This document shows, piece by piece, positions 9,001-31,442 of a stretch of 64,000 nucleotides of DNA. The notes under the pieces are model-generated. The model worked only from the letters and a program-made list of their open reading frames with translations. It ran no database searches and was not told the DNA's origin. Each line of letters begins with the position of its first letter. Position 1 is the first letter of the stretch. The translations under genes and the position numbers were made by a program. The DNA is from Candidatus Aenigmatarchaeota archaeon (lineage in GTDB: Archaea > Aenigmatarchaeota > Aenigmatarchaeia > CG10238-14 > SpSt-28): assembly GCA_038997165.1 (NCBI GenBank), contig JAWBAK010000001.1, positions 61,926 through 125,925 of the forward strand, read 5' to 3'.

Positions 9001-12000
9001 TCATACTATAAATGTTTATTTAATTAAAAGTGATTATTCAAGAGTAAGAACTAGAAATATTTTAAATGTTCAAGGAATAAATGTTGAAGCCTCTACACAA
9101 TTTACTTTCACATCTGCAGATATTGGAGATTGGTTTGTAATTGTTAATGTAACCGATGATTTTGGCATTGCTGAAATAAATACTTCAATTACAATTGAAA
9201 AAGACGATACTATTATTGAATATATTAGTGGAAATAATAGTATAGTTCATAGGATTCATAATACAACAACTTTTGAATTAAGAGCTATAGATATAGATAA
9301 TCCATCAAACAATATTTATTATCAGCCAGCTGGTTTTTGGGTTACTTCAGATTATGTTAATTATATTTATATTGGAACTGTATATACTGGAAATAATGGA
9401 TATTTTAATATAACTTTTGATCCTGATTGTAGATTTGAAACAGGAATTCAAAAATGGAAAGGAGGATTATTAGAAAATCCGAATTGGAAGACGTCGAATT
9501 CTTCAGAATATTTTGTTATAATAGTTTCTGATTTAAGTGGAAATATTATTCAGCCAGATGGAAACATTCTTTTAAGAGGCGTAGATTCTTTAAATATTAG
9601 AGCTACTGTTAGCGATGAATGTAAATATGTAAATGGTGCTGATGTTTACTTTGTTGTAGGAAATGAAAACATAAATATTACATGCGATAATGTTATAAAT
9701 GATAATCTAGGAAATTATACTTGTAGTTTATCTTCTAGTACACTTGAAATATTGCCATATGGTTGGAATAATATAACTATGTTTGCAAGGAAAGATTTTT
9801 ATGAAAATGAGTTAGTAATTACTAAACAAAACGCTTTCTACTTAGCAGATAAGCCAAAAATTGAAGATGTTTATGTAACTTCAGCAACTTGGAGATGGGG
9901 GACTGTTTTTGAATTCGTAGGTAAACTATATGATTTGGATCCAGATAATAAAACTGTTTATTTATGGATTAGTAGAGATGGTAGTAATTGGAGATTAATA
10001 AATCAAACAACATATTATGGCCCAACACCACCAGGAGGAGTAGATATTAAATTGAGTTTTATTCCTACTTGCAATGATGTAGGAAATTGGTACTTTAAAT
10101 TTAATGTTACCGATACTAGTGGATATTCGAGCGAAACATTTGGATATCAATTTGAAATACTCAAAAGACCAGCAGTTATAAGCGCTATAAGTGGATTAAA
10201 CAAAATAATTCAAAGAGAGGGTTCTGTTTCCACAACACTAAGAATAAAAGCTATAGATGCAATAGATGGAGCAAATATAAATAATGCAAAAATAAAATTT
10301 ATAACTATTAATAAAACTGGTCACGAAGTAACTTATGAAACTTGGACAAACCAATCTGGTATTGCATCTTACATTTTTGATCCAGATTGTTCTTACGGTG
10401 CTAATAAAACATATTGGAAAGCAATTCTATATAATAATTCATGTTATGAAGATACAGTTTCTCCAAATTTTGATATATACATTTATGGAAAATTGTATAA
10501 TAACCTTGTAGCTCCTTCACAAGGATCAACATTTCCATCTAGAACAACATTTAATATTTCTTATTATATAACTTCAGATTGTAGTGATGAAGGATTAATT
10601 GAGAACGCAAACGCAGAGATTAAAGTGTATGATCCGTTAAATCAAGAAATTATATGTACTCCAATAATTGAGGAAAACGGATATTATAATTGTACTTTTG
10701 ATACTACAGGCAAAAGAGCTGGTGTATATTCGATAACTCTAAACTCAACAAAACAATATTACTTCGGAAGTTATACTAATTATCCAAACTGGTTTAGCAT
10801 ATATAATTCTCCACCAACATATTCAAACATATCTGTCTCTCCATCTATTGCTCCATGGACATCAATACTAAACTTTAGTGTTTATGTTTCAGATGCTGAT
10901 AATGATGTAGTAAGATGTTCTCTAGAAATTAAAAAAGGTTACTCGTATATAGAAGTTGCAACTATGGAAATAAATGGAAATGGTCTTTGTAGTTTTTTGA
11001 TTAGCGATTTTAGCTGTGATGATATAGGAACTAATTACTTTAGATTCTCTTTAAGCGATGGATATAACGATATAGTCTATACAGAAGAGCAATCTTTTGA
11101 ATTAACTAAAAGTCCAGTAGTTCTTAATTTGATTAGTGGAAATGGAACAAGTGTAAGAAGAAATATAGCCTCGACAAACTTAAGAATTAGCGTTTTTGAT
11201 TTAGTTAAAAATTCATTAGTCGGAACTTCAATATTGCCAGAAGCATATGTGAAATTTAATATTACATTTGACAGCTTAAATTATATAAACTTAGATGAAG
11301 TTTCTACAACATCAGGATATGCAGAAGTTATGTTTTCTCCAGATTGTTCTTTCTCAGCCGGAACTCAATATTGGTATGCCTACATTAGTGAAAACGATGT
11401 TTGCTACGAATTCAATCAAACAAATAATTTTGAAGTATATGTAATAGGTAGTTTAAACCCATCTATCATTGAACCTACCAATTTATTTAAAGTATATAAA
11501 GGGAATAACGTAAGCATTAGAGCGAATATTCAAGATGATTGCAATGAAAATGTTAGCGTAGATTTTATACAAATTAATCCAATAAGCAGAATTACAGGTC
11601 AAATGTTTAATTGTATTGTTTCAGAAGAAAATATAGGAATCTATAACTGTAGTTTTGAAACTGTAGATAAACCAGCTGGAGCATACGATATTAGAGTAAA
11701 TGTTTCTAAACAATATCATGTCTCAGCAATATATACAGAAAGTAATGCGTTTTTCATAGAAACCTATCCTTCATTAACAAACCCATCTGTTACACCAATA
11801 GTTGAGGGTTGGGGTAAAACAAGAACATTTAGTATTACAGCAAGTGATGAAGATAGAGATGCTTTATATGTCTGCTTATATTATAGACCGAAAGGAAGTG
11901 AAGATTGGAGCTTAGCGTCTTGTAGAACGAAACCTTCTGGCATTGCTTCACAAACATTAACATTTTCTAGAACATTTAGCTGCGATAATTTATTAGGACA

Positions 12001-15000
12001 AGAAAGTATAGAATATGAATTTTTCTTTAATGTTACGGATGATGACAATAATATAGCGGAAAGTGAAATAAAAAACTTTACTCTTGAAAGAGATGATATT
12101 TCAGTCAGTTTAGCAGAGAGTTATGTAGAGTATAATAGAAGTAGTACAGAAAAGGCTTCTCTAATAATTTCAATAAGAGATTTAGATGCAAATTCCTATG
12201 CAACGAGAGCTGTTAATGCAACATTATATGTAACTAGAATTCCAGGAACAACAAACTACTTTATAGATAACGTTTACATAAATAGAAATCCTGTTCTAGG
12301 AAACATAACATTTTACTTTCCACAACAAAACAAATGTTTATATAAAGTAGGGCCACAAAAATGGTATGTAAGTATAAATTCAAGTTGCTATAAACCAGCG
12401 AATTCTCCAATAGGAACTCTTAATATCACGAGCTTGCCTCTAAATTCGACATTAATATATCCTATAGGAGAATATTTCCCACAAGGATATAATATACCAA
12501 TAACTGTAGAAGTTTATGATGATTGCGAAAAAGTTGATGGTGCATCTCTTTCAATAGAAGTTATAAATCCAAACAACGAAACTATTGAATGTTATCCTGT
12601 TTCGAATCTTGGAAATGGAGGCTATAGGTGCTCGTTTAGCGATACTTATTTATTGGGAAGCTACACAATTAAAACACAAGCAAATAAGCAATACTATCCT
12701 GAAGGGTATATTAATGAATTTCCAAACGCCTTTTTCATTACTTCAGCACCTTTCATAGATTCCACAGAAGTCTATGCAAGTAGAACATCAAGCGAAGAGG
12801 GTGGATGGGGAGACACATGGTTCTTTAAAATAAGAGTTTATGACGAAGATCAAAGTTTTATAGAGTTTGAAAAACTAAATATTAGTTTATACATAGATTT
12901 TGGTAATGGATACGAATACATATCTTCGCAAATATGTGAAGCTCCAGAATGTGCAAGTCTAAAAGAATTTGTTTTTACGCATACATTTGATTGTTCAAAG
13001 ATTGGTGATAATAAGAAATTTAAGTTTATAGTTAGAGATTTCTTCAATAATACTGTTGAATCTGCCGAAGGGTATTTTAACATATTACCAGATGAACCGC
13101 AAATAACAATTCTAAGAAAGCCAACAAGAATTAATAGAGAAGGGAATTTTGCTGATATGTTTAACATTTCTGTTATAGATGTAGATAGAGGAGTTCCAGC
13201 AAATGCTACTCTTACATTATTTATTACAACGGATTCTTCGAACTTTAATTTCTATGTTAATCTAAATTCCGTAAATGGAATTGCTACATATAGCTTTGAT
13301 CCTGATTGTAGATTTAGCGCTGGAATTCAATATTTCAAAGTAAGCACAAACGATTCTTGCTATAAGCTCAAAACTAGCGATATTGACGAATTCGAAATTA
13401 TAGGAAGTTTACAAAACTATATTATTTATCCATATAGAAATTCGGATATTTTAATAGAATTTGGAAAAATCGAAAATATAACTTTAAATGTTAAAGATGA
13501 GTGTGAAAATGATATTGAAAATGCTAATGTTAATCTAAATGCTATTTGGCCAAATAATTATATAGAAAATATTCCTGTTTATGAAGAAAATAGTGGAATT
13601 TATAATGCAACTTGGAATTTAAGTAGAAAAATTGGTGGATATTATTCTTTTGTTTTTAATTCTTCCAAGGAATATTATAATTCTAATTCAACATTATTCT
13701 TAAATTGGATTTATCTAAATAATACTCCACCAATAATTGAAAATATAAGTGTTAATCCATTAGTTGGTGGATGGGGAGAAACGTTTACATTTAGCGCAGA
13801 TGTTTTTGATATTCAAAGAGATGATGTTGTTTGTAAGCTATATGTTTATACAGGGAAAAATACTTGGTTATATAAAGGAAGTGTAACTATTAAAGATGGG
13901 GTTGGAAAGTGTATAATAAATGTTAGTGATTTTGATTGCTCAGATATTAATGTTACTTCTTTGAATATGTTTAAGTTTGAAATTTCTGATGTAAACAATG
14001 TTTTTAATACTACAGAAATTTTTGCACCAGCAATAGGTAAAAATGATGTTGAAATTTATTATGTATTTGGAAATAATAGTTTCGTTAATAGAGCGTATTA
14101 CAACACAACCTTATTATCTTTAAGGATATTTGATAAAATTAAGAATACATTTGTAGGTTCTAATGTTAGAGGTTTTGTAAAAGTTACTAAAGATGGAAGT
14201 AATTATGGAGAAGAAATTATAAACTATACCAATTCTTCTGGATATCTAAATGTTTATTTCGATCCAAGCGGAGATTATGAAGTAGGTATTCAAAAATGGC
14301 TTGGAGGAGTTTTGAACGATAATTGTTATTTAGATAAAAATAGTGAAGAGTATTATTTAACTATCTTAGGAGAAATAGCTCTTAGTTATTTTGGAATAGA
14401 TAGAGAAGATGCTCGATACCTTAAGCCAAAAGATGATATTACAATTACTATAGCGCTTCAAGATGATAGGGGCTCGTATATAAATGATGCAAACGTTAAT
14501 ATAACTTTAATAGATGAGTTTAATAATAAATATATTTGCCCTATAAGTAATCTTGGCGGTGGAACTTATCAATGTTCTATTAGCACATCTGTCTTAGCTG
14601 CTAGATGGTATAACGTTTCTATATTAGCTAAAAAAGAATATCATTTAGATCTAAATGTTACATTTTCCAACGTATTTTTCATAGAAACAGAGCCAAAAGT
14701 ATATAATATAAGTGCTATTAGCGAGGAAAACTCAAATATTGGTGGATGGGGAGAAACGTGGAAATTCGTTGCAATTTTTGAAGATGAAGATTTAGATAGA
14801 AATGAAATTTGGATTCAAATCAAGCCAGAAAACTCTGAAAATTGGTATACTGTCAATAGTACTATAATTTCTGGAATTAATAAGACAACTATTGAACTTA
14901 TAGTGAAAGATCCAGGATTACTACAACAATATTTAGGCATATGGAATGCTCAATTCTATTCAATCGATAATAGAGGATATATAAGTTATAGTGAAATTAT

Positions 15001-18000
15001 TAATTTCACTGTAGAGAAAAATGATGTAAGAATAGAATTAGTTGAAGGAAATAATTCAACTGTATGGCGAAATAATACAGAATCTGTAACTTTAAAAGTT
15101 AGAATTTACGATTTAGATCAAAAGATATATGTATCTTCTCCTTCAGCAAAAACATATTTCTTTATAACTTATGATGGAAATGTTTTTGATGAAGGAAGAG
15201 AAACTTATACAGATAATGAAGGTTATTCATACATTGATTTCGATCCAGATTGTAGATATAAGACAGGTGTTCAAAAATGGGTTGTGAAGATTATTAACGA
15301 TACTTATTATAAAGATTCTTCATCTCAAAACTTCACATTAAACATTTACTCTACTTTAATTCCGAATGTAACATTTCCAGATGGACATGCATTTTTAGTT
15401 GGGGAATTAGTACCTATAAATGTTAGCCTAAGAGATGAATGTGAATATGTAAATAAAGCAAGTGTAACAATAAGAGTTAGATATTTAGCAACTACATATA
15501 CTTGCACTCCAGTAAATAATATTGATAATGGAATTTATAACTGTGTTTGGGACTCTAGTGGAAAAGCATATGGAGGTTATGATGTAATAGCTATTGCTTC
15601 GAAATCTTTCTACGCATCTAATTCAACGACAAAACCTCTAGCATTTTATTTAGCATCAATACCACAGCTTTCTAACGCATCTGTTAATCCATTAGTTGGT
15701 GGATGGGGAGAAACGTTTACATTTAGCGTAAGATTAACTGATTTAGATAGAAATCAAAATAATGTTACCTTATGGAAAAGTTATGATAATCAAAGTTGGA
15801 TTTATGTAACAAGTAAATTAGTTACACCAACATATGCAGGATATTTAGTAAGTTTTGTTGTAACGTTTGATTGCGAAGATTTATTAAATGGTCCTCTAGT
15901 ATATTTCAAGTTTTCATCAAAAGATCAATTCGGTTATTATAATGAAAGTGGAATAATTAATGTTACATTTGAGCAAAACGATGCTTCATTAAGTATTATA
16001 GAATATAATTCAAGCGTTAGAAGGCTAGAAAACAATATATCGTATTTCTTACTTAGAGTTTACGATAGCGATAGAAAAGTTTATCCAAATAATACAGAAG
16101 TCACTTTATATATAACTGAAAATGGAAATGACTATACAATAGAAATTATTAATCAAACATATTTAGGAAATGTATCTTTCTATTACGATCCTACATGCTC
16201 TTCAAACGTAGGAATTCAAAAATGGTATGCGAAAATCACAGATGTTTGTTATAAAAATGTTAATACAACAGAAAGAGCTTTAACTGTTATTGGACAATTA
16301 TATATAGACATCTTGAATCCAAAAAACAATCAAATCTTAAACAGAAATACTACTTATTACTTTAATTCTAGCGTATATGATGAATGTAATTTAATAATCG
16401 ATAATGCAAATGTTAGCTGGTTCTTTGGAAATACAAGAATTGGTACTACGTATAACGTTACATATACCATTCCATTTAACTATAAGTTAGGATTAGAAAA
16501 TGTAAAAGCAAACACTTCTAGGATTTATTACGATCCAAATGAAAAGGTTATAAATGTTTATGTTTATGGATTTGCAGATTTAACAGAAATTTATCCACAA
16601 ACAAATTCAAAATTCTTAGCTGGAGAAATAGTAAATTTAGTTTGCAGAGTTATGGATAAAAATCTAAATGTACCAATCGAAGGATATACAGTATATTTCT
16701 ATAGAAACGATACATTAATAGGAAGCTCGCTAACAAATTCTAGTGGATATGCAACATTCAGCTGGTCAACAGTTAACGAATTAGCTGGATTTGTAGAGAT
16801 GAAATGTAGGATAACTAACGACGATATTAAATATTATAATGCATCTATTTCAGAAATTTCTTCTTTAATAAGAATTAGAAGACCTATAACAATAAGAGAG
16901 ATTTCTGTTACACCAAATGAAATTTATAGAAATGATACTTTTTCACCAAACATAGCTACTATAAAAGTGAGAACATATGATTCAATAATAGCGGCAACAA
17001 GTAATGCAATAGTTTATTTCTATAACGAAACAGATTTAATTGGAAACTGCACACCAGATTCTTTTGGCTATTGTTCGATAACATATAATCCACCCAACGA
17101 AACTAATGTTGGAATTAAATACATTTACATAAACGCAACACCAACGATAGAAGGTAGAGAAAACTCAGATACATATATCACATCTTTTATAGCAAAAGGT
17201 AAATTATATATTCAAATATTAGAACCTTCGAACTCTAGCATATTTGCAAAATCTTCAACAGTTAATATAAGAACTTATGTAACTAGTGAAAATGGCGAAA
17301 ATATTCCTGCATTATATCCAAATTCAAGAGTAAATATTACAAACTCTTCGAGCATAATTGGTTTCGCTTATCCAACAGGGGAGGCAAATATTTATGCTGG
17401 AAGCTTTAACTTATTAGATCAAAAAACTGGATGGTTAAATATATCTACTATAATAAACATTCCATATTATGATTCTGCAGTAGATTCTATATGGATATTA
17501 GTAACTGGTTTAGCTGGAGTAGAATTTACATTTCCAAGCAATAACCAAGAAATAACTTATCCTTCAACAATATATCCAACTTGCTTAGTTAAAGATTTAG
17601 ATAGTGAAATCGGAATAGAGAATTATCCTGTAGAATTCTATTATAAAACGTCAAGTAGCGATTGGATATATGTATCTACAGAAATAACGAATTCTAGTGG
17701 ATTAGCAAACATATCTTTTACAACCCCATCAAAGGGAGAGTTTTACTTTAAATGTGTTATTAGCGATAATGCAACTTTGGTATATTCTGCTATATATAAT
17801 GAAAGCATTGTTAGAATTTTAGTTAAAGATCTTACCCCACCAGAAATTTTAGAAACTTCAATAAGTCCGACATATGATATAGAGGCAAATAGAGATTTTG
17901 TAAATATTTCTGCAGTAGTATCTGATAACATAGGAATTAGTGAAGTCTGGGCAATGATTGGCTTGCCAAATGGTAGTTCAGTAAGAGTAAATATGAATAA

Positions 18001-21000
18001 AATATCTGGAAATTTAACATATGGATTTTATTCAGCCATTTATATTCCTCCAATAGGCGGAGAATATAATGTAACAGTATTTGCAAAAGATTTGCCACCA
18101 GAAGCAAATGTTAACTCATCTTTTGCAGGAATTTTCTACGTATTTGGAAAAACTAATCTTGAGCTTAACGTATTTCCAGAAAACATTATTGCAGATGGTA
18201 TTACAATATATAATGGCTATCCTTTTGAAATAATAATAAATGTTAGTAATTTAGGTCCCGCGACAGCATACGATTTAAACATAACACTATTTGATGACAG
18301 TGGAAGAATTGAATATTCAACTAATATTATTACTATTTCTAACATAAGCAGGTATATAAACATCTCGCAAATGATTATGGCAAGAGTAAAAGAAGCTACA
18401 CCAGCACAAACCATTAATATATTCGTTAACCTAAGCTGGAGAAATCCAGATTTAACATATAACTATACTGTTAAAAGAATATTCGTAATAGTTGCAGAAA
18501 ATCCAAAATTAGAAATTAAGCCAGAATATATCAATGAAGTTGTTGAACACGACACAATAAAGATTATAGGTAGTGTAAACATTACAAATATTGGAAACGT
18601 GCCAATTACCGAAATTTTACTCTCTACAGATTTAAACACTCCGTTTTATATGTATTGTTTGAATTGTTCCATATCACTATTTCCAACATATCAAGGATTC
18701 TTAGCAATGGGTCAAAGCTTTATTAGTGAAATTACTGTTAGTATTCCTGCGGGCCAAGATCCTGGAAGTTATTGGAGTAGGATATTAGTTTCTTCAAAAG
18801 AGGCAGCCACTGTTTATTCAATAATAAATATAACTGTACCTATAAATAATTCTTGGATTATTGATAAAGAGATTAGTGGAATAATTCTAGCTCCATTAGG
18901 AACTAAAAAAGAAATTGACAAAATTAACTTTTCGAATATTGGAAATGTTAATGTAACTATCTCTATATACTTAAGTGGAAGAGGTGCCGAATTAGTAAGA
19001 GTAGAAAATAGAAGTTCATTTTCTTTTGTATTACCAAAACAAAAAGAAAGATTAGTTTCATTTAGTTACGATATACCAAAAACTAAAAATGAAGGACTTT
19101 ATGATGTAAGAGTAGTAATGGTAAGTACAGATGGTTATCCGAATCTAAGAGAATTTATATTTACGTTAAATGTAACAGATATTCCACCAATAATAGAGAA
19201 TGTAACATTTTCAAAAACAGATTTTGAAATAAACGAAACTATAAATGTAACTGCAAAAATATATGATAACATTGAATTAGATAAAGCTTGGATAAACATA
19301 TCTTATCCAAACAATACTTATGAAATTAAATTGCTGAAGAAATTGCAAGACGATATATTCTACGAAAATATTTCATCTAGAATTGCTGGAGAAATTAAGA
19401 TATCAATCTGTGCAAACGATACTAAAGGTTTAACCAGTTGTACAGAAGAGTTTATAATTAGAGCTCATTCAAAAACTATTTTAGATGTTCTATCAGAAAA
19501 AATAGTTTTTGAAAACGTTACATTAAGAAATTCTCAAACAAAAACAGTTATACTAAACTTAACTAACTTAGGTTTTGCAAGAGCATTTAACGTTAGTATA
19601 AAAGGTGAAGATGAAATTTTTGATATTACTTTAACTAATGTATCATTAATTTTGGCTAGAGAAATAATTCCAGTAATTGTTAATATAACAGCATTAAATG
19701 GAACCTATAGTGGAAATTATTCTGCAAAAATAAATATAACTTGGATTAATTTAGATGGAAGCATTGAAAGTAAAATATCTTTAATTCCAATAGAAGTTTT
19801 GCCAGTTCATTTGATAGAAATAGAAAATAAAACAGAATATATTAAAAACAATGAAGAAAGAATTGTTAATATATCTTTATCTGCTGTAGGAAATGTTAAC
19901 GAAACTAATATAACATTAATTTGTTCTGCAAACTGCGAATTGTTTAAAATAGATCTAAACGAAACTATTGATAATATAGCACTTGGAGAAACCATAGAAA
20001 TTCCAATAAGAGTTTTTGTTCCTTCTGATTTAGAAAGTGGGGAATATATGGTTGAGTTAAAGGCTTATAATGAATTTACTTCAGCAACCGGATATCTAAA
20101 AATAATCGTTCCTATAAACATTTCTTGGGAAATTTATCCAATTTATGAAGAAATAGAAAGCGTACAGGGAGAAGAATTATTTAGAAATATAACAATAAGA
20201 AATACAGGAAATTTAAGATTGTTATTGAATTTGTCTTCAATAGCAATAAACGGATCTAACTTTATATATTTTGAAAATGATAAAAACTTTACTACAATAA
20301 GTTTAAGAGTTGGTGAAACAAAAATTATTCCAATAAAAATAGTTGTTCCTATAGTTTACGATTATTCCATTTTTGAAAACAGAATAGTTTCGCTTAACTT
20401 TACAACTCAATCTGGCTTAATAACTAAGAATTCTACATTTATACTTAAAATACATCCATTATTTGTAAAAATAATCGAACCTACAGAATCGAATCCACTA
20501 AAAAGAGTTGTTGCTGGTGATACTATTTATGCTAAGGTAAATGTAAGTTATGGAAATGAAACTTTAACATCTAATGTTAGTTTTCAAATATTTTTATCGA
20601 ATGAAACATATAGGCATGAAATAGAAAATTTCACAGCTCAATTCTTAGTAATTGAAAAATTATGGTTATTAACATTCATAGCTCCTAATTTAACAGAAGG
20701 AATAGGATATGATTTAATCGTTAATGCTACATATTTATTAAAAAATGTTTCAAAAATAGATGTAGAACCAAAATCAATAATTTATCTTGACACTATTCCG
20801 CCAGAAATTGAAATAATTATTCCGGCTAGAATTAGAGTTAATACATCAGCTATATTCTGGTTTAATATAACAGATTTAGGTGGAGTAGAAAGTGCTAATG
20901 CTATAATAATTAAACCAGATAGCAATATTAGTGAATATAATTTAACGTTTGTAAAAAGAATAGGAAGTACATATATATACAAATTAGAGTTTAATGAAAC

Positions 21001-23683
21001 AGATCAAATTGGAAGATATGTAATAAATGTAATTGCTTATGATAAAAGTGGTAACAAAGCTGAAAAATCTGCAATTTTTGATGTTAGGCCGCTAATTTTC
21101 TTTAGTGGTATTGCAAAAGATGAAGAAAGCATAGATTATGTTCCATTAAACGTTACTTTCGAATTATATCCAGCAGGAAGGTATGAAATGTTATACAGAA
21201 TAGTTCCTGACGAAGAAGGATATTATAATGAAACAATAGAAGCGATGTATTACGATATTGTATATAAATTCTTTAATGAAAGCTTAGTAATCTCTAATAT
21301 TGGATTGTTTGATGATGTATTTAATCCGATAGTATTAGGAATACCGAGAGAAGTTATTTTACCAAGAGAAGCAATTAAAGGTTATGTTTTAGATAGTATT
21401 CTTAAATCATCCTCTACCTTAATATTCGATATAAGCAATTTAGATGCTAGAAAGCATGATTTAAGATTATTAGGAATTTATCATTGCGCAAACTGGACAA
21501 GATATATTGGCTGCAATTCAACTTGGATTAGACTAAACTCTATAGTTTCTTTACAAAGCTTAAAAGTTTATGCAACAAACATAAGCGAAATTAAGGGTGC
21601 GTATATTTTAGCTCAATATGTTTGTGGAAATGGAATATGTGAAGATAGATTTGGTGAAAGTAATGCAATTTGTCCATTAGATTGTCCAGCTGCTGGAGCT
21701 CCAGGAATTCCAGCTCCAGGAATTGGAGCACCTGGAATAGGGGCTGGAGTAGGAATTCCTGCAGTTCCAGCTGCTCCTGGAGTAGGAATAGGAGTTGGTG
21801 CTGGTGCACCAACAATAACCATTCCACCCTATGAAATATTTACTAAGGAAATTAGTGTAACATTAAAGCCAAAAGAACATATAATTGTAAGTGTTGATAT
21901 AGGAAACAATAGAAATAAAGATATTAAAGTAAAGTTTAAGCCAGAAGGATTAATTTGGGAATTTGTTCAATTAGAAGCAAACGAAATTGAAATTAAAGCA
22001 AGTCAAAGAGGCACGATAAAAATGAAAATATTTGCTCCAGAAGAAAAAATGCCAGGAATCTATACAGGAGATTTGGTTGTTTATATTGAAAATGAAACAT
22101 ATAGAATTCCAGTAACAATTAAAATAGAGTTACCACCAGAACCTTTGCTTGACGTAATAATAAATGTATTAAGAAAAACAATAGAACCCAACGAAACTTT
22201 AAAGGTATTTGTTAGAGTAGTCAATATGGGTCAAACAGAAAAAGTAGAAGATATTGTTTTAACTTACATAATAAAAGATTTATTAACTGGAGAATTATAC
22301 AATGTTTATAAAGAAACTATAGCTGTAGAGACAGCAACTTCATTTACAAGAGAAATTACCTTACCAGAAGGAATTAAATTAGATAGAAAATATCTAATAG
22401 AGGTTAATGCAAGTTATTGGTATGGAAGAAAATATGCATATGCAGCAGATACTTTTGAAGTAGTTTCATTACCCATACCTTTAAAAATACTTAGAAGCCT
22501 ATTACTAAATCCAGTAACTTATATTGTTACTTTTGGAATTGCACCAACCGCTTATTTAGCTCAAAAAGCACTACAAGCCTATAAATTAAGAAAATTAAAA
22601 GAAAAGAGATATGCATTACCAATAGATTTTGATAAATTACCAAAAGCAGGTCCTAATAGTATTGAAGTTGGAAAAATTGCAGAAACGGATGTAAAGGCAT
22701 ATTTTGATATGAAGCAATTAATAATGCATACTATTGCAGCTGGTGGTACTGGAAGTGGTAAAACTATAAGTGCTATGGTTGTTGCAGAAGAATTATTAAA
22801 AAGAAATATTCCAGTAATAGTTTTTGATCCTACAGCACAATGGACTGGCTTCATAAAACCAAATAAAGATCCTACTATGCAAGCCTTTTATAAACAATTT
22901 GGATTAAAACCAGAAGATGCTAGAGGATTCAAAACAAATATAATTGTTGTAGAAGATGTGGATATGCCACTAGATATTAAAAAGTATATGAATCCAGGAG
23001 AAATAACTGTTTTTGTATTAAATAGATTAAAAGCAGATGAATTAGATAAATTTATTAGAAGAAGTATTGAAGCTGTTTTTGAAATGAAACCACCAGAATC
23101 GAAAGAACTCAAACTATTATTAATATACGATGAAATTCATAGAACTTTACCAAAATATGGAGGTAAAGGTGGTTATATAGCTATTGAAAGGGGAGCAAGA
23201 GAATTTAGAAAATGGGGAATTGGATTATTCTTAATATCTCAAGTATTGTTAGACTTTAAAGGAGCAATTAGAGCAAATGTTGCTACAGAAATTCAATTAA
23301 GAACAAAATATGAAGGAGATATAAATAGAGTAAAGCAAAAATATGGAACAGATTATGCAAGCAAAGTTACTAAATTGACAATTGGTACTGGAATTGTTCA
23401 AAATCCTGAATATAACAATGGTAAGCCTTGGATAATTCAATTTAGACCTATTTTACATTCAACTTTCGCATTATCAAAAGAAGAGCTAGATACTTATATG
23501 AATTTAAGAAAGAAGTTGGAAGCATTTGAAAAAGAAGTTGAAAATCTTAAGGCAAGAGGAATTGATACTTTCGATATAGAAAATGAAATAAAACTTGCTT
23601 GGGATAGATTGAAGCAAGGAATGTTTAGAATGGTTGAAACATATATTGAAAGTATTGAAACAAATCTCAAACGTTATAAATAA
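2..23683 (+). CDS. Giant surface (adhesin/S-layer-like) protein, 5'-partial because the ORF continues upstream of the window; single C-terminal TM helix and cytoplasmic HerA/FtsK-superfamily P-loop ATPase domain
   Basis: The frame containing the ATG at 917 has no stop codon from nt 2 to 917. Codons 2-916 were translated by hand and give a protein-like sequence with the CARDB-like motif NIYNDGPGNASNVIV, so the true start lies upstream of the window; the ORF track's 917 is only the first in-frame ATG. The ORF is uninterrupted for 23.7 kb in an AT-rich genome and ends at TAA 23681-23683. N-x-S/T sequons are extremely dense. Domain order is described in the sub-features. Confidence 0.85.
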   Translation, partial: LNFPLFFACGNFSTKLQVFNKGNLPAYNFRINETKSDILKTHPGDLIFYGFNPSNPYLEQSKLISWDGGINFIATGKDNAINFTYSIFVPYQTNGTFSFQALALNNTFSFFDEEYIISISCGASLSIDQIRIRKGEYPEPTIYVNDIFNISANIYNDGPGNASNVIVWINYTNVTQIRGLENLKIYNSNGEESNIIYLGNILPKETKIAFNDYYFTVNTSGVSPGIIRFCINANATENSTIVSSCRDITINAPPALIELENPIAISKETGSSFGSWSFNFTFNVSVRVSNSENDVQICAWFSKTGMEPFKLIGCDIYPAPGNNIGSWRNYSFEYSPSCEDIGNPVFIKFNATNFAGSSNSTTLPFTITKSKIVFDEILGNNTETRRGKMPTILGVRVKDINGTYISNLPLRFYVSLNEIVFDAGNTVYTNESGYANYNFLAVCTPKYLVGYQKWKAELKDNECYFDNSTENYFDLRVLVTGDILLYIVRPDGSTNYTQEDTITFLGYVTDDCGDPLTASVIFFANHSIESFECSDVTQVGSNAYTCDWHTEITTPMGWYNVSMYVEKEFHYSNWSIKAKDPGLFYLEPIYKLEDPQAYPIREGWGYKNWNFSVFASSGDSENEFDVNIYLGDLWPPAKPCEECINITPKTCFNCYKQLVVFLRNFTAYEIGTWYYRFSLGPTSTTQVKYVIVEKDDTTMEYVSGNNSIVIRNSQPALLSVRVFDLDANTYELNPPALVTFKLYDEKYPNGYKVIGSVYTNSSGYANLLLNITECTGWLEGIQKWSAEIDDNDNYYKKSSIGNFTIEIQLPGCQPQVYIYSIELPKEAFQYKNFTIVTYVTSWVGDAEGVYINITLPDGWYTDEQTKYLGKIYANEFKKIYWNVYASTFGEGKAIFYINSSNAGYKRLESNNIVVYKFSQSTINSIININSNDFEILEFDCETGNYRIANLTIKISENSNNSTLKIESFNSSNWIKIENNLEVISNSFYFIPILANQISSNSDGKCLVKITNVGDKNVIIESATLTSYYNETLKIDGIKVLVNNFEVESIDKTESSFNISVRIGNSLDINKDGNLTLKILKDGKEIYSNYKEFTINANSFTFINFTDIQTSNWEEGIYEIIAILNSSNEIKLLKREIVFSEIKIDITSPKYQCNSSTEKIYLEIYQPLEDYISYNISLQIPNNWDYNPKYIYLEPKGKGFYFAEFNLTAFSEIEEDYQIIIVINYTYANNTKSLIKPINIKVSPNIPILEIIRELPSLVSTSIVFKPRIVIHNKGCGIANNVTIKEYISAGWIGANPSIAKNEYANDPEVSDKDVDLIYSETDLINNILTWQLSDIKPNKYAVLTYQIKAPPTLFTAGYLKYNISWNNEYYIEEKIPSKVYTYRYPEESHLEFDLIAIQTLEYPWPEVRSIQVNREYNFTLKVTNIGDINTNNDWTIKLYIPKECEVINVENGIWNESERKIVWSLPNISTYQTSYFNFTLKCNEEKQYVLIAEGIRDTRSKVSFENSTSIYCESYSKPAYCYSKLDYILAKPTNARYEKLSNITIEFLNKYSGNNLTIGNSYIKIFDDLLNEHIIWQDYSFEEKNEIKTKQLIIYENQENFVSNIKTFEISSYSDATENTYTNISILKIYYTWDLGKLFNETQNLFIKSKVYDYTPLFRNAKLYINGNDSIKVGGWGEKFEFSVEVRDRFGRDVIVRMYHRKVGGEWSLVDEKVCYSCLEWTQFNFSYDYDYTDISNWEFKFEGINSDGISEYYGFVYTVEKDDVELTPIQPQWNETVLRAYGYNFTIYAFDIDNKTIPYVLEDYKAFVALGQYGNNLTYKIYTLSPSINESGYIILKVTNTEFCNPANNYYLGQNYWFGGIQGSAYYKDVNTRIPPYNALPYVLIGSLYNNIIYPINVNFSFELDTITLRGVVYDDCGNIRADEDMYVYFNLTNGDYNYQCIATRVGNEFQCTFNPRSLNAPLGWYNISMYSSKPLHTDGIYSVNNAFFLASIPKIINISINPFGGPWGLSPFNFSAYIIDEDGNFVNITHYLRKVPEQYFVAYIDNCTNCNYYLTSFLRNFVCDYENIEVGEWRYKIETKDEAGFSNTSQEISFTIEKEPINISLFESVPLINRSNVPNSKAYNLSVTIFDTILNRNVTEIPFVYLKLEGPATFTYEMEKDETQEKYYYEFLPGCSYPVGEYKWYSYVLNDYCYQNARSENYTINIYGSLSVNIISPTDYQIIPEGQSVTIRSNIIDDCGVSITNANVYYILRNERTQEEFRCPESGFANYDGTSYVCNFNTSGKPGGNYTIIAYASRNYYWDSLAIKENAFFLVTPVRIINVTMNYEHDGSWGEIHNFTALIDHYNDVIVCLLEKPIDAQEYQVTECKYVENPSGGKKVTFNRRYTCSNFVRSQFWNYKINATEPGVPSSYSESQEYQHMLQKNDLSLIIYYNDSEAKRYGDQRARLIVYAYDLDQKQAAYVSAYNSPNIKFNVYNGSSFVFVGANSTNSSGYSTLFFKPDCSFDVGIKEWYAYTEADACYKNVISDRSNITIVGLLNPYLVSPINEEYTRYAELYINLSAIVKDECNLITFENATVTFIAKSVAFGSEYLCSDVTYSNGYYNCSLNATLIEEGWYNVNVTASNVLYYDDYYYLQTNSFKIIHSLVPPVLSNEYAYPEQDGGWGERWYFRVNVSDLNGDDVNIYLWISRDRSNWELVNQTICYNCGYERTIELSYKGFTCEDYLNRPIYFKFNATDAYNSTDRNPIALYLDKNDLRIEYYSGNESKIIRNVGGILQARIYDLDFGDYADSQVALYVTTDRNNYKLVAINNSLNSIATLFFNPTCEFDVGLQYWKIGSYNDACYKNVNSSDFNLYVIGNIDANITYPKGDKFLRGSNVTLNISIFDECSENIPLENTKINITMISNRDKSIRYCTEIIELGNGLYSCTFNSSNFTPNYYNVTLNISKELYTNKTKTFSNVFWIETNPILFNLRAIPNVLGWGETLTIKVNFTDEDLDTHTINVYLIKSDYSRVRTRNILNVQGINVEASTQFTFTSADIGDWFVIVNVTDDFGIAEINTSITIEKDDTIIEYISGNNSIVHRIHNTTTFELRAIDIDNPSNNIYYQPAGFWVTSDYVNYIYIGTVYTGNNGYFNITFDPDCRFETGIQKWKGGLLENPNWKTSNSSEYFVIIVSDLSGNIIQPDGNILLRGVDSLNIRATVSDECKYVNGADVYFVVGNENINITCDNVINDNLGNYTCSLSSSTLEILPYGWNNITMFARKDFYENELVITKQNAFYLADKPKIEDVYVTSATWRWGTVFEFVGKLYDLDPDNKTVYLWISRDGSNWRLINQTTYYGPTPPGGVDIKLSFIPTCNDVGNWYFKFNVTDTSGYSSETFGYQFEILKRPAVISAISGLNKIIQREGSVSTTLRIKAIDAIDGANINNAKIKFITINKTGHEVTYETWTNQSGIASYIFDPDCSYGANKTYWKAILYNNSCYEDTVSPNFDIYIYGKLYNNLVAPSQGSTFPSRTTFNISYYITSDCSDEGLIENANAEIKVYDPLNQEIICTPIIEENGYYNCTFDTTGKRAGVYSITLNSTKQYYFGSYTNYPNWFSIYNSPPTYSNISVSPSIAPWTSILNFSVYVSDADNDVVRCSLEIKKGYSYIEVATMEINGNGLCSFLISDFSCDDIGTNYFRFSLSDGYNDIVYTEEQSFELTKSPVVLNLISGNGTSVRRNIASTNLRISVFDLVKNSLVGTSILPEAYVKFNITFDSLNYINLDEVSTTSGYAEVMFSPDCSFSAGTQYWYAYISENDVCYEFNQTNNFEVYVIGSLNPSIIEPTNLFKVYKGNNVSIRANIQDDCNENVSVDFIQINPISRITGQMFNCIVSEENIGIYNCSFETVDKPAGAYDIRVNVSKQYHVSAIYTESNAFFIETYPSLTNPSVTPIVEGWGKTRTFSITASDEDRDALYVCLYYRPKGSEDWSLASCRTKPSGIASQTLTFSRTFSCDNLLGQESIEYEFFFNVTDDDNNIAESEIKNFTLERDDISVSLAESYVEYNRSSTEKASLIISIRDLDANSYATRAVNATLYVTRIPGTTNYFIDNVYINRNPVLGNITFYFPQQNKCLYKVGPQKWYVSINSSCYKPANSPIGTLNITSLPLNSTLIYPIGEYFPQGYNIPITVEVYDDCEKVDGASLSIEVINPNNETIECYPVSNLGNGGYRCSFSDTYLLGSYTIKTQANKQYYPEGYINEFPNAFFITSAPFIDSTEVYASRTSSEEGGWGDTWFFKIRVYDEDQSFIEFEKLNISLYIDFGNGYEYISSQICEAPECASLKEFVFTHTFDCSKIGDNKKFKFIVRDFFNNTVESAEGYFNILPDEPQITILRKPTRINREGNFADMFNISVIDVDRGVPANATLTLFITTDSSNFNFYVNLNSVNGIATYSFDPDCRFSAGIQYFKVSTNDSCYKLKTSDIDEFEIIGSLQNYIIYPYRNSDILIEFGKIENITLNVKDECENDIENANVNLNAIWPNNYIENIPVYEENSGIYNATWNLSRKIGGYYSFVFNSSKEYYNSNSTLFLNWIYLNNTPPIIENISVNPLVGGWGETFTFSADVFDIQRDDVVCKLYVYTGKNTWLYKGSVTIKDGVGKCIINVSDFDCSDINVTSLNMFKFEISDVNNVFNTTEIFAPAIGKNDVEIYYVFGNNSFVNRAYYNTTLLSLRIFDKIKNTFVGSNVRGFVKVTKDGSNYGEEIINYTNSSGYLNVYFDPSGDYEVGIQKWLGGVLNDNCYLDKNSEEYYLTILGEIALSYFGIDREDARYLKPKDDITITIALQDDRGSYINDANVNITLIDEFNNKYICPISNLGGGTYQCSISTSVLAARWYNVSILAKKEYHLDLNVTFSNVFFIETEPKVYNISAISEENSNIGGWGETWKFVAIFEDEDLDRNEIWIQIKPENSENWYTVNSTIISGINKTTIELIVKDPGLLQQYLGIWNAQFYSIDNRGYISYSEIINFTVEKNDVRIELVEGNNSTVWRNNTESVTLKVRIYDLDQKIYVSSPSAKTYFFITYDGNVFDEGRETYTDNEGYSYIDFDPDCRYKTGVQKWVVKIINDTYYKDSSSQNFTLNIYSTLIPNVTFPDGHAFLVGELVPINVSLRDECEYVNKASVTIRVRYLATTYTCTPVNNIDNGIYNCVWDSSGKAYGGYDVIAIASKSFYASNSTTKPLAFYLASIPQLSNASVNPLVGGWGETFTFSVRLTDLDRNQNNVTLWKSYDNQSWIYVTSKLVTPTYAGYLVSFVVTFDCEDLLNGPLVYFKFSSKDQFGYYNESGIINVTFEQNDASLSIIEYNSSVRRLENNISYFLLRVYDSDRKVYPNNTEVTLYITENGNDYTIEIINQTYLGNVSFYYDPTCSSNVGIQKWYAKITDVCYKNVNTTERALTVIGQLYIDILNPKNNQILNRNTTYYFNSSVYDECNLIIDNANVSWFFGNTRIGTTYNVTYTIPFNYKLGLENVKANTSRIYYDPNEKVINVYVYGFADLTEIYPQTNSKFLAGEIVNLVCRVMDKNLNVPIEGYTVYFYRNDTLIGSSLTNSSGYATFSWSTVNELAGFVEMKCRITNDDIKYYNASISEISSLIRIRRPITIREISVTPNEIYRNDTFSPNIATIKVRTYDSIIAATSNAIVYFYNETDLIGNCTPDSFGYCSITYNPPNETNVGIKYIYINATPTIEGRENSDTYITSFIAKGKLYIQILEPSNSSIFAKSSTVNIRTYVTSENGENIPALYPNSRVNITNSSSIIGFAYPTGEANIYAGSFNLLDQKTGWLNISTIINIPYYDSAVDSIWILVTGLAGVEFTFPSNNQEITYPSTIYPTCLVKDLDSEIGIENYPVEFYYKTSSSDWIYVSTEITNSSGLANISFTTPSKGEFYFKCVISDNATLVYSAIYNESIVRILVKDLTPPEILETSISPTYDIEANRDFVNISAVVSDNIGISEVWAMIGLPNGSSVRVNMNKISGNLTYGFYSAIYIPPIGGEYNVTVFAKDLPPEANVNSSFAGIFYVFGKTNLELNVFPENIIADGITIYNGYPFEIIINVSNLGPATAYDLNITLFDDSGRIEYSTNIITISNISRYINISQMIMARVKEATPAQTINIFVNLSWRNPDLTYNYTVKRIFVIVAENPKLEIKPEYINEVVEHDTIKIIGSVNITNIGNVPITEILLSTDLNTPFYMYCLNCSISLFPTYQGFLAMGQSFISEITVSIPAGQDPGSYWSRILVSSKEAATVYSIINITVPINNSWIIDKEISGIILAPLGTKKEIDKINFSNIGNVNVTISIYLSGRGAELVRVENRSSFSFVLPKQKERLVSFSYDIPKTKNEGLYDVRVVMVSTDGYPNLREFIFTLNVTDIPPIIENVTFSKTDFEINETINVTAKIYDNIELDKAWINISYPNNTYEIKLLKKLQDDIFYENISSRIAGEIKISICANDTKGLTSCTEEFIIRAHSKTILDVLSEKIVFENVTLRNSQTKTVILNLTNLGFARAFNVSIKGEDEIFDITLTNVSLILAREIIPVIVNITALNGTYSGNYSAKINITWINLDGSIESKISLIPIEVLPVHLIEIENKTEYIKNNEERIVNISLSAVGNVNETNITLICSANCELFKIDLNETIDNIALGETIEIPIRVFVPSDLESGEYMVELKAYNEFTSATGYLKIIVPINISWEIYPIYEEIESVQGEELFRNITIRNTGNLRLLLNLSSIAINGSNFIYFENDKNFTTISLRVGETKIIPIKIVVPIVYDYSIFENRIVSLNFTTQSGLITKNSTFILKIHPLFVKIIEPTESNPLKRVVAGDTIYAKVNVSYGNETLTSNVSFQIFLSNETYRHEIENFTAQFLVIEKLWLLTFIAPNLTEGIGYDLIVNATYLLKNVSKIDVEPKSIIYLDTIPPEIEIIIPARIRVNTSAIFWFNITDLGGVESANAIIIKPDSNISEYNLTFVKRIGSTYIYKLEFNETDQIGRYVINVIAYDKSGNKAEKSAIFDVRPLIFFSGIAKDEESIDYVPLNVTFELYPAGRYEMLYRIVPDEEGYYNETIEAMYYDIVYKFFNESLVISNIGLFDDVFNPIVLGIPREVILPREAIKGYVLDSILKSSSTLIFDISNLDARKHDLRLLGIYHCANWTRYIGCNSTWIRLNSIVSLQSLKVYATNISEIKGAYILAQYVCGNGICEDRFGESNAICPLDCPAAGAPGIPAPGIGAPGIGAGVGIPAVPAAPGVGIGVGAGAPTITIPPYEIFTKEISVTLKPKEHIIVSVDIGNNRNKDIKVKFKPEGLIWEFVQLEANEIEIKASQRGTIKMKIFAPEEKMPGIYTGDLVVYIENETYRIPVTIKIELPPEPLLDVIINVLRKTIEPNETLKVFVRVVNMGQTEKVEDIVLTYIIKDLLTGELYNVYKETIAVETATSFTREITLPEGIKLDRKYLIEVNASYWYGRKYAYAADTFEVVSLPIPLKILRSLLLNPVTYIVTFGIAPTAYLAQKALQAYKLRKLKEKRYALPIDFDKLPKAGPNSIEVGKIAETDVKAYFDMKQLIMHTIAAGGTGSGKTISAMVVAEELLKRNIPVIVFDPTAQWTGFIKPNKDPTMQAFYKQFGLKPEDARGFKTNIIVVEDVDMPLDIKKYMNPGEITVFVLNRLKADELDKFIRRSIEAVFEMKPPESKELKLLLIYDEIHRTLPKYGGKGGYIAIERGAREFRKWGIGLFLISQVLLDFKGAIRANVATEIQLRTKYEGDINRVKQKYGTDYASKVTKLTIGTGIVQNPEYNNGKPWIIQFRPILHSTFALSKEELDTYMNLRKKLEAFEKEVENLKARGIDTFDIENEIKLAWDRLKQGMFRMVETYIESIETNLKRYK
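820..16300 (+). repeat. Tandem array of at least 14 copies of a ~320-aa (944-996 nt period) four-part module inside the giant CDS; a ~2.2 kb insertion of different N-rich/CARDB-like domains (about 2700-4950) splits copy 1 from copy 2
   Basis: The G-W-G-E/Y core recurs at nt ~820 (GSWSF variant), 1808, 5021, 6017, 6998, 7991, 8945, 9889, 10850, 11804, 12800, 13766, 14741 and 15698. Each module carries in order: (a) xGGWGE(T/K)(F/W)xF...D(E/L)D; (b) SGNNSIVxRN...(R/K)(I/V)(Y/F)DLD; (c) GYAxxxFDPDC(R/S)FxxG(I/T)QKWxA...CYK; (d) DDCG/DEC...NxGxYxC(S/T)F...GxY. Confidence 0.7.
16300..21600 (+). other. Stalk region of giant protein: about 3-4 bacterial-Ig-like (Big/invasin-like) domains (about 16550-17800), then about 8-10 CARDB-like beta-sandwich domains with NxGxxxA/T motifs
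   Basis: Ig-like examples: YTVYFYRNDTLIGSSLTNSSGYATFSWS and VEFYYKTSSSDWIYVSTEITNSSGLANISFT. CARDB-type motifs: VSNLGPATAYDLNITL, ITNIGNVPITEI, FSNIGNVNVTISIY, LTNLGFARAFNVSI, SAVGNVNETNIT, RNTGNLRLLLNL. Motif-level assignment only. Confidence 0.45.
21623..21685 (+). other. Small 4-Cys module CGNGICEDRFGESNAICPLDC inside giant protein
   Basis: Read directly: C-G-N-G-x-C-E ... C-P-x-D-C with four Cys in 21 residues, immediately before the Gly/Pro linker. It is the only Cys cluster in this part of the protein. Confidence 0.5.
21686..21808 (+). repeat. Elastin-like Gly/Pro/Ala/Val/Ile low-complexity linker (41 aa); local GC island inside the giant CDS
   Basis: Translates to PAAGAPGIPAPGIGAPGIGAGVGIPAVPAAPGVGIGVGAGAP. 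The nucleotides are GC-rich (cca gga / gct cca repeats) in an otherwise AT-rich gene. Both minus-strand frames stay open here by composition, which explains the spurious ORFs at 21591-21827. Confidence 0.85.
22499..22561 (+). other. Single transmembrane helix of giant protein (LLLNPVTYIVTFGIAPTAYLA) followed by a K/R-rich stretch
   Basis: A 21-residue hydrophobic segment followed by QKALQAYKLRKLKEKR (positive-inside rule), which gives an N-out/C-in type I topology. About 7,400 aa are extracellular and about 370 aa cytoplasmic. Confidence 0.7.
22650..23440 (+). other. Cytoplasmic HerA/VirB4/FtsK-superfamily P-loop ATPase domain (DUF87-like) at C-terminus of giant protein
   Basis: Walker A IAAGGTGSGKT (22736-22765). 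Walker B LLLIYDEIH (23114-23140), a DEAH-like DEIH. The downstream block EFRKWGIGLFLISQVLLDF...ANVATEIQLRT matches the HerA pattern (EGRKFGVGLxLxTQRPS...vlsqcnt.i.lRl). It ends in a short coiled coil. No NurA-like partner lies nearby. Confidence 0.75.
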
Positions 23684-30674: not shown

Positions 30675-31442
30675 ATGGCAGAAATTATAGCCTTTTTATC
30701 TGGAAAAGGTGGTGTTGGTAAGACTACTATTGCAATTAACATAGCAAACGTTTTGTCGACATATTTTAGAAGAAAAGTATTAATTGTCGATACAAATTTT
30801 ACAACCTCTCATTTGGGTTTAAGTTTAGGAATTTTTTATCCAGAAGGAAATTTAAATAAAGTATTAAGAGGAGAAATGAATGTTGAAGATGCTATACATA
30901 ATTATTCTTTAGGTCTTGACTTATTGCCGCTATCTTTATCTATTAGAGATTTAGAAGGGATTGATATATTAAAATTTCCAAGAGTTTTAGAAAGTGTTAA
31001 TTACCGATATGATTATATAATTTTAGATGCAGCTCCAGGACTCGGAAGAGAAGCTATTTTATCTATTAAAAATGCTAATAAAATAGTTTATATTGCTCTG
31101 CCTATAATGCAAAGTGTTGTAGATATAGTTAGAACTCAAGAAGTTGTAAGAGAGTTTGAAAAAAAAGAATTAGGAATTATATTAAACATGGTTAGAAACA
31201 AACCTTATGAAATGAGAGATAACGATATTGAAGGATTAACAAATTTAAAAATAATTGGAAAAATTCCATATGATGAAAGATTTTTAATTTCAAATGCACA
31301 TAAATTGCCCTATACAACCCTTTATCAAAATAACAAAACTTATGAAGAATTTCTAAAGATTTGTAGTATTTTAACAAATCAAAAAATAGAAATTAAAAAA
31401 AGTTTGTTTGGAAGAATATTAGAATTTTTATTTAAAAAATAA
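30675..31442 (+). CDS. MinD/ParA-family (SIMIBI) ATPase, 255 aa
   Basis: Deviant Walker A FLSGKGGVGKTTIAINIA. Blocks VDTNFTTSHLGLSL and IILDAAPG (Walker B-like). Size typical of MinD/ParA/Mrp. Confidence 0.85.
   Translation: MAEIIAFLSGKGGVGKTTIAINIANVLSTYFRRKVLIVDTNFTTSHLGLSLGIFYPEGNLNKVLRGEMNVEDAIHNYSLGLDLLPLSLSIRDLEGIDILKFPRVLESVNYRYDYIILDAAPGLGREAILSIKNANKIVYIALPIMQSVVDIVRTQEVVREFEKKELGIILNMVRNKPYEMRDNDIEGLTNLKIIGKIPYDERFLISNAHKLPYTTLYQNNKTYEEFLKICSILTNQKIEIKKSLFGRILEFLFKK

Follow-up and report, generated by a model that had tools for sequence, protein, structure and literature searches.

A four-cysteine module and the Gly/Pro-rich linker directly behind it, both encoded by a giant open reading frame (ORF) in a 64,000-nucleotide (nt) stretch of archaeal DNA (the window; contig JAWBAK010000001.1, positions 61,926 to 125,925), appear to form a joint in the extracellular part of the encoded protein. 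The ORF encodes a surface protein of a tiny, symbiotic DPANN archaeon (Nanopusillaceae), with one transmembrane (TM) helix and a cytoplasmic HerA-type ATPase. Our analysis favors, with a probability of about 0.7, the view that module and linker are a conserved disulfide cap and flexible hinge in the juxtamembrane joint of this N-glycosylated giant protein (more than 7,890 amino acids, aa), the disulfides and the hinge being what we infer. The 21-residue mini-domain would cap the C-terminal end of the distal stalk as a small cross-linked knob. The uncharged disordered segment behind it, about 41-47 residues long, would serve as a flexible hinge or spacer giving rotational and bending freedom, and would join the distal stalk (beta-sandwich repeats, ~6,900 aa of which fall inside the window) to a fixed pedestal composed of two beta-sandwich domains, one TM helix and the cytoplasmic HerA-type ATPase. 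Judging from polymer dimensions, such a hinge may have a contour length of at most ~15 nm and a coil dimension of ~4-5 nm.

Residues are numbered here in the ORF as listed, and model residues are those of an AlphaFold2 model of aa 6640-7230 (591 aa; 27 family sequences; mean predicted local distance difference test, pLDDT, 80.7). The features of the gene are as follows:

nt 2..23683, + strand: giant ORF, listed as 917..23683 (7,588 aa); its frame is stop-free over nt 2-917 and open to the left edge of the window
nt 21152..21616, + strand: last distal beta-rich domain, aa ~6746-6900 (model residues 107-261, pLDDT mostly 80-88)
nt 21623..21685, + strand: four-Cys mini-domain CGNGICEDRFGESNAICPLDC, aa 6903-6923, with the spacing C-x4-C-x10-C-x3-C and conserved G2, G11-E12 and D20
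nt 21686..21820, + strand: disordered uncharged Gly/Pro/Ala/Ile/Val linker, aa 6924-6964 with disorder to ~6968, coinciding with a guanine-plus-cytosine (GC) island
nt 21689..21694, + strand: GCT GCT (Ala-Ala), of which one GCT unit is missing in the relative L121 (MAFFT and blastn)
nt 21694..21738, + strand: 15-nt tandem repeat in three copies, consensus TGGAGCTCCAGGAAT, encoding (A)PGI(P/G) units (Tandem Repeats Finder, 80% matches, score 62)
nt 21830..22126, + strand: membrane-proximal beta-sandwich domain 1, aa ~6972-7070 (model residues 333-431, pLDDT 85-92)
nt 22148..22462, + strand: membrane-proximal beta-sandwich domain 2, aa ~7078-7182 (model residues 439-543, pLDDT 84-91)
nt 22475..22603, + strand: single TM helix and its Lys/Arg-rich cytoplasmic continuation, aa ~7187-7229 (model helix residues 548-590)
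nt 22634..23683, + strand: cytoplasmic HerA/FtsK-type P-loop ATPase domain, with Walker A GGTGSGKT at nt 22742-22765 and Walker B LLLIYDEIH

Module and linker stand exactly where a first-pass annotation of this DNA had put them (nt 21623-21808). Indeed, nt 21623 is base 1 of Cys6903 and nt 21808 the final base of codon 6964 in the ORF 917..23683, and the module sequence CGNGxCE...CPxDC had likewise been read correctly. Its pattern occurs a single time across the six-frame translation of the window. The linker, PAAGAPGIPAPGIGAPGIGAGVGIPAVPAAPGVGIGVGAGA (nt 21686-21808, aa 6924-6964), is a run of 41 residues that are all G, P, A, I or V. This length had also been recognized, although the string then quoted had 42 letters and the low-complexity, disordered stretch reaches slightly beyond the run, to about aa 6968-6971. 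The five residues make up 30.9% of the protein, and simple arithmetic gives a run of 41 a chance of ~0.309^41 = 1e-21 per position; such a G/P/A-rich run was found only once in all six frames of the window. Ser and Thr are absent until TITIPP at the end of the linker. In the AlphaFold2 model, pLDDT falls to 30-36 at model residues 287-329 (aa 6926-6968), which correspond to the linker, between flanking domains at 85-92, and the only other place with values below 50 is a three-residue loop (residues 100-102). As in a disordered interdomain linker, there is thus no predicted fixed structure between confidently folded domains, in agreement with the flexible segment that had been proposed.

Both elements belong to the extracellular portion of the protein, since all its N-x-S/T sequons precede the TM helix: 269 are located N-terminal of it and none in the ~380-aa ATPase tail, where ~14 would be expected at equal density. 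The earlier placement of the cassette just outside the membrane has to be revised, as two beta-sandwich domains, ~220 residues in all, stand between the linker and the TM helix. On its other side, the distal domain ends in the strand GAYILAQYV, conserved in homologues, which leads into the module. Domain 1 of the pedestal gave a weak WxLIP_PGBD match in Pfam and generic Ig/MG-like fold matches. The TM helix has the core LLLNPVTYIVTFGIAPTAYLAQ followed by KALQAYKLRKLKEKRY, with a local hydropathy maximum at aa 7182-7209. The ATPase domain matches Pfam DUF87 with 41.2 bits (cut-off 23.2), the NCBIfam models CedD and HerA weakly, and HerA/DNA helicase structures in the PDB at 3.5e-7 to 1.7e-5; by family membership alone, it would presumably form a hexameric ring and carry out ATP-driven translocation. 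A Foldseek comparison of the 591-aa model with the PDB returned only generic multi-beta-sandwich matches (complement C3 MG domains, WxLIP, RbmA), which are uninformative for the module. With no stop in its frame over nt 2-917, the protein must be longer than 7,890 aa, and its N-terminus is not within the window. Ile, Asn, Ser and Tyr are abundant in it, and over most of its length Pfam gave only Ig-like matches (Big_7, Big_1, DUF11, MG2). Most of the stalk consists of about 14 tandem repeats of ~320 aa with 30-35% mutual identity and a recurring five-Cys pattern (~4685-17960, aa 1257-5681).

The joint is conserved well beyond this genome. The closest database protein, P0001, is 99% identical and comes from a Nanopusillaceae metagenome-assembled genome (MAG), and others come from Aenigmatarchaeota and Nanohaloarchaea MAGs. 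All homologues that reach the site show ...G[AV]Y[IVA]LA[EQ][FY][IV]-CG[ND]xxC-x10-CxxDC followed by a low-complexity run of 30-64 aa, and the spacing C-x4-C-x10-C-x3-C is invariant in 18/18 close homologues reaching it. An exhaustive search with aa 6850-7230 as query, the ATPase being excluded, at E<=1e-3 defined a family of 1,208 representatives, many of them 4,000-7,665 aa long. Among 83 diverse representatives spanning the site (clustered at 50% identity), the strict module was present in 60 and a four-Cys module in 72. The 40 aa after the module contain on average 26% Gly, 13% Pro, 10% Ala and 17% Ser+Thr, so that G/P/A/S/T reach 66% there versus 34% in the whole proteins, with charged residues at 11% versus 20% and aromatic ones at 2% versus 10%. 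The flavour of the linker varies: 35 of the 72 module-bearing members have a polyG run, 11 a Pro-rich one and 26 a mixed one, and at least two elastin-like PGxG/GxGxG units are found in only five (P0001-3, P0009, P0037), plus the locus L075. Members that have lost the module retain a polyG run. The Walker A motif follows 348-399 aa downstream of the module in nearly all members in which both are visible (one outlier, 419).

The behavior of the segment in the family is that of a disordered linker, with conserved position and composition, variable sequence and length (30-64 aa) and a tendency to indels. Comparison of these sequences indicates that selection acts on the existence of the linker, its position, its approximate length and its uncharged, non-aromatic nature, and not on its sequence. 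The elastin-like PGxG flavour would then be one lineage's solution, where others use polyG, GGGGSA repeats or Pro/Thr-rich runs. Thus, an elastin-like composition, which the first-pass annotation had pointed out, is real in this protein and does not appear to be the selected feature. Some members depart from the common arrangement. Two modules stand at the joint in P0047, P0051, P0058 and P0045, either as a module, a polyG linker and a shorter CGNxxCExGEN(Y)xNCP(Q/E)DC module, or as a tandem pair before the linker; P0047, P0051 and P0058 have the former order, with the linker between the modules. In the distant members P0061-P0076, P0113 and P0126, the polyG linker leads not directly into a beta-sandwich but into a conserved, probably helical segment, ...LSASDLxKIEELIKSFxNVGGxxxxTTSIYKELFAGD....

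The module also occurs outside the family. We scanned GTDB, one genome per species, with the back-translated strict pattern C-G-[ND]-x2-C-x4-G-E-x4-C-x2-D-C and obtained at least 202 matches at at least 120 loci, where ~0.3 would be expected by chance (an estimate that assumes uniform base composition). The matches listed come from Myxococcota, DPANN, Altiarchaeota, Methanosarcinales and Patescibacteria. Of the 80 loci listed, about 34 belong to Myxococcota or 'Deltaproteobacteria', often with tandem arrays of up to 30 copies (L030), 22 to archaea (Woese-, Pace-, Aenigmat-, Nano-, Alti- and Iainarchaeota; Methanosarcinales), 3 to Patescibacteria and 21 to other bacteria. In other DPANN proteins, the module is often found directly upstream of a C-terminal TM anchor (L051, L094, L043, L090, L082, L083, L104). 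The array of L030 (Polyangiaceae MAG, ~1650-4380, - strand) covers ~900 aa with 30 head-to-tail copies, each with six Cys (extra Cys at position 10 and at ~25), and matches nothing in Pfam or NCBIfam. Neither the module by itself nor its tandem arrays in other organisms could be assigned to a family with Pfam or NCBIfam, which gave only sub-threshold RET_CRD hits and chance matches; the RET cysteine-rich domain (PF22540), with its gathering score of 26 bits, was approached at 12.7-15.1 bits by single modules or short arrays and at 24.8 bits by P0134. A profile of 50 module instances found nothing significant among PDB sequences (best DPH3 at E = 2.3, then the ADAMTS-1 disintegrin-like region at E = 4.4), and none of the papers searched contained the module's motif strings. 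Taken together, the module appears to be a widespread extracellular mini-domain that has no Pfam or NCBIfam model. We also considered that module and linker might travel together as a mobile cassette in other surface proteins, as had been suggested. This was rejected: a long P/G linker follows only 2 of the 175 module instances listed (L075, L097), both in members of the family.

How the four Cys are held and what the linker does are the two points on which other readings compete. Invariant Cys that are even in number, fixed in spacing and extracellular are the signature of a small disulfide-rich module, and two disulfides, C1-C3 and C2-C4, most likely hold the four Cys together. This pairing is suggested by two degenerate modules, that of P0053, VGDGVCDSSYGESVGNSPIDC, where C1 and C3 are missing, and that of P0110, CGNEKNEQGYGETNENCPVDV, where C2 and C4 are; such paired losses are hard to square with a four-ligand metal site. 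Moreover, a second additional Cys, located at +23 to +25, tends to accompany the frequent extra Cys14 of bacterial variants (odds ratio 2.6, p = 0.002). A metal knuckle, in which the four Cys with the conserved Asp and Glu would bind Zn or Fe, could explain the two close pairs (C-x4-C and C-x3-C) and the invariant E12 and D20. Many of the host organisms are anaerobes, and DPH3, the weak, chance-level match in the PDB, binds zinc. We nevertheless find a metal site improbable, since the module is extracellular, forms long tandem arrays in proteins of Myxococcota, which are largely aerobic, matches no Pfam zinc-finger model, and loses its Cys two at a time, leaving two, as expected for disulfides and not for a tetrahedral site. 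As for the linker, an elastin-like entropic spring, whose PGxG repeats would give reversible rubber-like extension so that the stalk stretches under load and recoils, is unlikely, if the least so of the alternatives. The linker does consist only of G, P, A, I and V, its 2P+G is 0.70 (0.39-1.07 in family linkers), it has three [A]PG[IV]G units with a 15-nt periodicity, and the relatives P0003 and L075 are still more elastin-like (PGVGPGVGVGAPGVPGVPGVP). However, with so few members carrying PGxG-type units, and with polyG (35) or Pro-rich (11) linkers filling the same place, elastin-type elasticity is not a conserved property. Neither a strict VPGXG unit nor a Lys/Ala cross-linking segment is present, 41 aa at ~0.38 nm per residue would extend by at most ~15 nm, which is small for a stalk of thousands of residues, and the linker is not adjacent to the membrane. 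The segment might instead be a site of processing or passage: it could thread the S-layer as a thin segment, serve as a glycosylated stalk, or act as a neck where a protease cuts the distal stalk loose. Its place would suit such a role: in all members it stands two beta-sandwich domains (a fixed ~220 aa) away from the membrane, a distance that could match a pseudo-periplasmic space, the 348-399-aa spacing between module and Walker A (outlier 419) is constrained too, and the lack of charge is conserved. Several homologues have linkers rich in Pro/Thr or Ser/Thr, as is typical of O-glycosylated stalks. The linker of the window, however, has no Ser or Thr before its terminal TITIPP, so that O-glycosylation is not general, and no conserved cleavage motif was found; we regard this role as a poor candidate. 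The cap-and-hinge reading has its own weaknesses, which we weighed against it. The argument from paired Cys loss comes from two sequences only, and the Cys14 co-occurrence is confounded by tandem arrays. Anoxic habitats are common among DPANN, which makes extracellular disulfides less certain. The module itself is modelled at a pLDDT of ~65 (moderate confidence), and the N-terminus of the giant protein, with its export signal, is outside the window. Finally, a hinge or spacer is the default reading of any disordered linker.

The linker is also conspicuous as DNA, and one may ask whether the GC island is a feature of the DNA or RNA, for instance a piece of foreign DNA, a structured RNA or a signal for recombination. 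At 56.8% GC, nt 21686-21810 are the maximum of all 125-nt windows in the 64 kb (mean 25.5%, standard deviation 5.2%, next best 41.6%), about six standard deviations above the mean and the strongest GC outlier. The ~125-nt GC spike described earlier and its attribution to codon choice are both borne out: Gly/Pro/Ala codons account for the GC. GC at the three codon positions of the linker is 0.88/0.78/0.024, compared with 0.36/0.35/0.14 for the whole ORF, and its third positions (2.4%) are thus below the ORF average of 14% and practically at the limit of AT-richness. The amino acids and the ORF's own codon usage predict a linker GC of 57.9% where 56.1% is observed, i.e. within 2 points. Since third-position GC is so low and composition predicts the whole, the island is a passive by-product of the GGN, CCN and GCN codons of Gly, Pro and Ala, in a genome of 25% GC, and holds no information beyond that. 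The feature is moreover kept at the protein and not the DNA level in homologues from genomes of other GC content, and a DNA- or RNA-level origin is hardly credible. Foreign DNA and an RNA element were indeed ruled out as its source by codon-position GC and by Rfam, which found no RNA family (tRNA, rRNA, other) at gathering threshold in the window; on the opposite strand, the linker region holds no ORF of at least 80 aa.

The mini-repeat within the linker, predicted to be slippage-prone, is present, if weak (15-nt period, three copies, 80% matches), and the prediction fits the comparison with relatives. Against L121, the contig of P0001, the window is 98.8% identical over 5,614 aligned nt with a single indel (1 gap opening, 3 gap positions), and this indel is one GCT unit of CCA GCT GCT GGA at the start of the linker. 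Only 2.2% of the alignment (123 nt) is linker, and the placement of the indel there is therefore unlikely to be due to chance. Against L122 (82% protein identity), the linker has several indels and its flanks are gap-free. That the linker repeat is prone to in-frame indels is supported by these alignments.

What the joint would mean depends on how far its role can be generalized. A cap and hinge that are real, conserved and conceptually ordinary, a small Cys-rich cap and a low-complexity hinge both being familiar, are what we have; the added value is modest and lies in an uncatalogued, widespread Cys module and in the cassette as a landmark. As such, the module-linker cassette reliably marks a large DPANN family in which giant membrane proteins carry a fused HerA-type ATPase, and defining the C-x4-C-x10-C-x3-C module (CG[ND]GxC...GE...CPxDC) would allow better annotation of many 'hypothetical' surface proteins. 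The GC island illustrates that amino-acid composition alone can give a striking GC peak in an AT-rich genome. A far bolder interpretation, which we consider quite unlikely, is that the DPANN share an undescribed surface machine in which cap and hinge are the conserved mechanical joint, and that the module is a new, very widespread mini-domain family. If true, the machine would combine giant Ig-repeat stalks (up to more than 7,600 aa), one TM helix and a presumably hexameric HerA-type ATPase, would be encoded with coiled-coil proteins, a ParA/MinD ATPase and a ~1,900-aa Ig-rich partner, and its hinge would decouple a host-contacting distal stalk from an ATP-driven pedestal, or transmit pulling. 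The giant ATPase-fusion proteins are candidate components of the still poorly understood apparatus by which DPANN symbionts attach to their hosts. In the literature on DPANN giant proteins, HerA, DUF87 and cultivated Nanobdellota, we did not find a description of this giant protein/ATPase family or of the multi-gene system to which its genes appear to belong.

The neighborhood of the gene is of interest in this regard. Three genes follow it directly, identified with Pfam and NCBIfam:

nt 23686-24918, + strand: coiled-coil protein, 410 aa
nt 24915-30641, + strand: Ig/MG-rich protein, 1,908 aa
nt 30675-31442, + strand: ParA/MinD-type ATPase

The same coiled-coil/Ig-MG/ParA-MinD set adjoins distant homologues (L123, 3624-12407; L124, 12931-17796) as well as close ones (L121, L122), the coiled-coil partner ranging from 410 to 712 aa across neighborhoods. 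This recurrence points to a conserved multi-gene surface system made of the giant ATPase-fusion gene and the downstream set. Adjacent genes have overlapping or abutting start and stop codons (23683/23686, 24915-24918) and may thus belong to one operon. The window, at 25.5% GC, is almost wholly occupied by large surface, coiled-coil and ATPase genes. Further along, it contains long coiled-coil proteins of no specific family (31660-33561 and 34963-38100), a second ParA/MinD-type ATPase gene (40789-41514, - strand) and an ORF of 2,542 aa (45801-53429) with a strong beta-propeller region (Beta-prop_ACSF4 224 bits, PQQ_2, FG-GAP) and no Cys module; the latter is probably another surface protein.

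Several known systems resemble parts of this joint. The Myxococcus Cys-rich repeat (DUF4215/TIGR02232) is, like the module, a short extracellular Cys-rich repeat that opens with CG[ND]G and is abundant in Myxococcota, and it adjoins the module within the same proteins (L069). It differs in Cys spacing and consensus (...GEeCDDGN...GDGC...C). Indeed, the DUF4215 model matches the neighboring repeats of different type in L069 (43.9 bits; best stretch, residues 84-111) and not the module, and DUF4215/myxo_disulf_rpt (PF13948) gave no match at E<=1 for the module alone or for arrays. Elastin and elastin-like polypeptides, (VPGXG)n, share with the linker a composition of G/P/A/V/I only and PG[IV]G units that recur about every five residues; predicted disorder and a high 2P+G are common to both. 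A 2P+G of ~0.6 is said to have been set by Rauscher et al. in 2006 as the boundary between elastomeric and amyloid-prone sequences, and the linker falls in the Pro+Gly elastomeric range (2P+G of at least ~0.6). It is, however, a short single insert between folded domains with ~3 units in 41 aa. The relaxed units are APGIG (twice), APGVG (once) and APGIP (once), VPG is absent, there is no strict VPGXG/VGVAPG tandem repeat, and, the linker having no Lys or other charged residue, no Lys/Ala cross-linking; the flavour is unconserved, and polyG or PT-rich runs replace it.

Titin PEVK/N2B offers a parallel in that a short disordered Pro-rich segment forms a compliant point in a very long chain of Ig-like beta-sandwiches. 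There is no homology, and PEVK is highly charged, hundreds to thousands of residues long, intracellular and eukaryotic, whereas the linker is uncharged, ~40 aa long and extracellular. A further parallel is offered by the PT- or Gly-rich linkers of secreted microbial proteins. Cellulases have PT linkers of this type, and the S-layer glycoprotein of Halobacterium has a Thr-rich membrane-proximal stalk. They too are low-complexity, fast-evolving, length-variable spacers between folded extracellular domains near the cell surface, and several family members have genuine PT-rich versions. The linker of the window has no Ser/Thr in its 41-residue run, so it is not an O-glycosylation stalk, and the four-Cys module precedes it. 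Finally, the C-terminal domain of the host protein resembles HerA/FtsK ATPases (DUF87; CedD/HerA), with its DUF87 match, Walker A and B motifs and matches to solved HerA structures. It scores far below the cut-off of the NCBIfam equivalogs (CedD, 40 bits versus 600), and here more than 7,000 extracellular residues are attached to the ATPase via a single TM helix.

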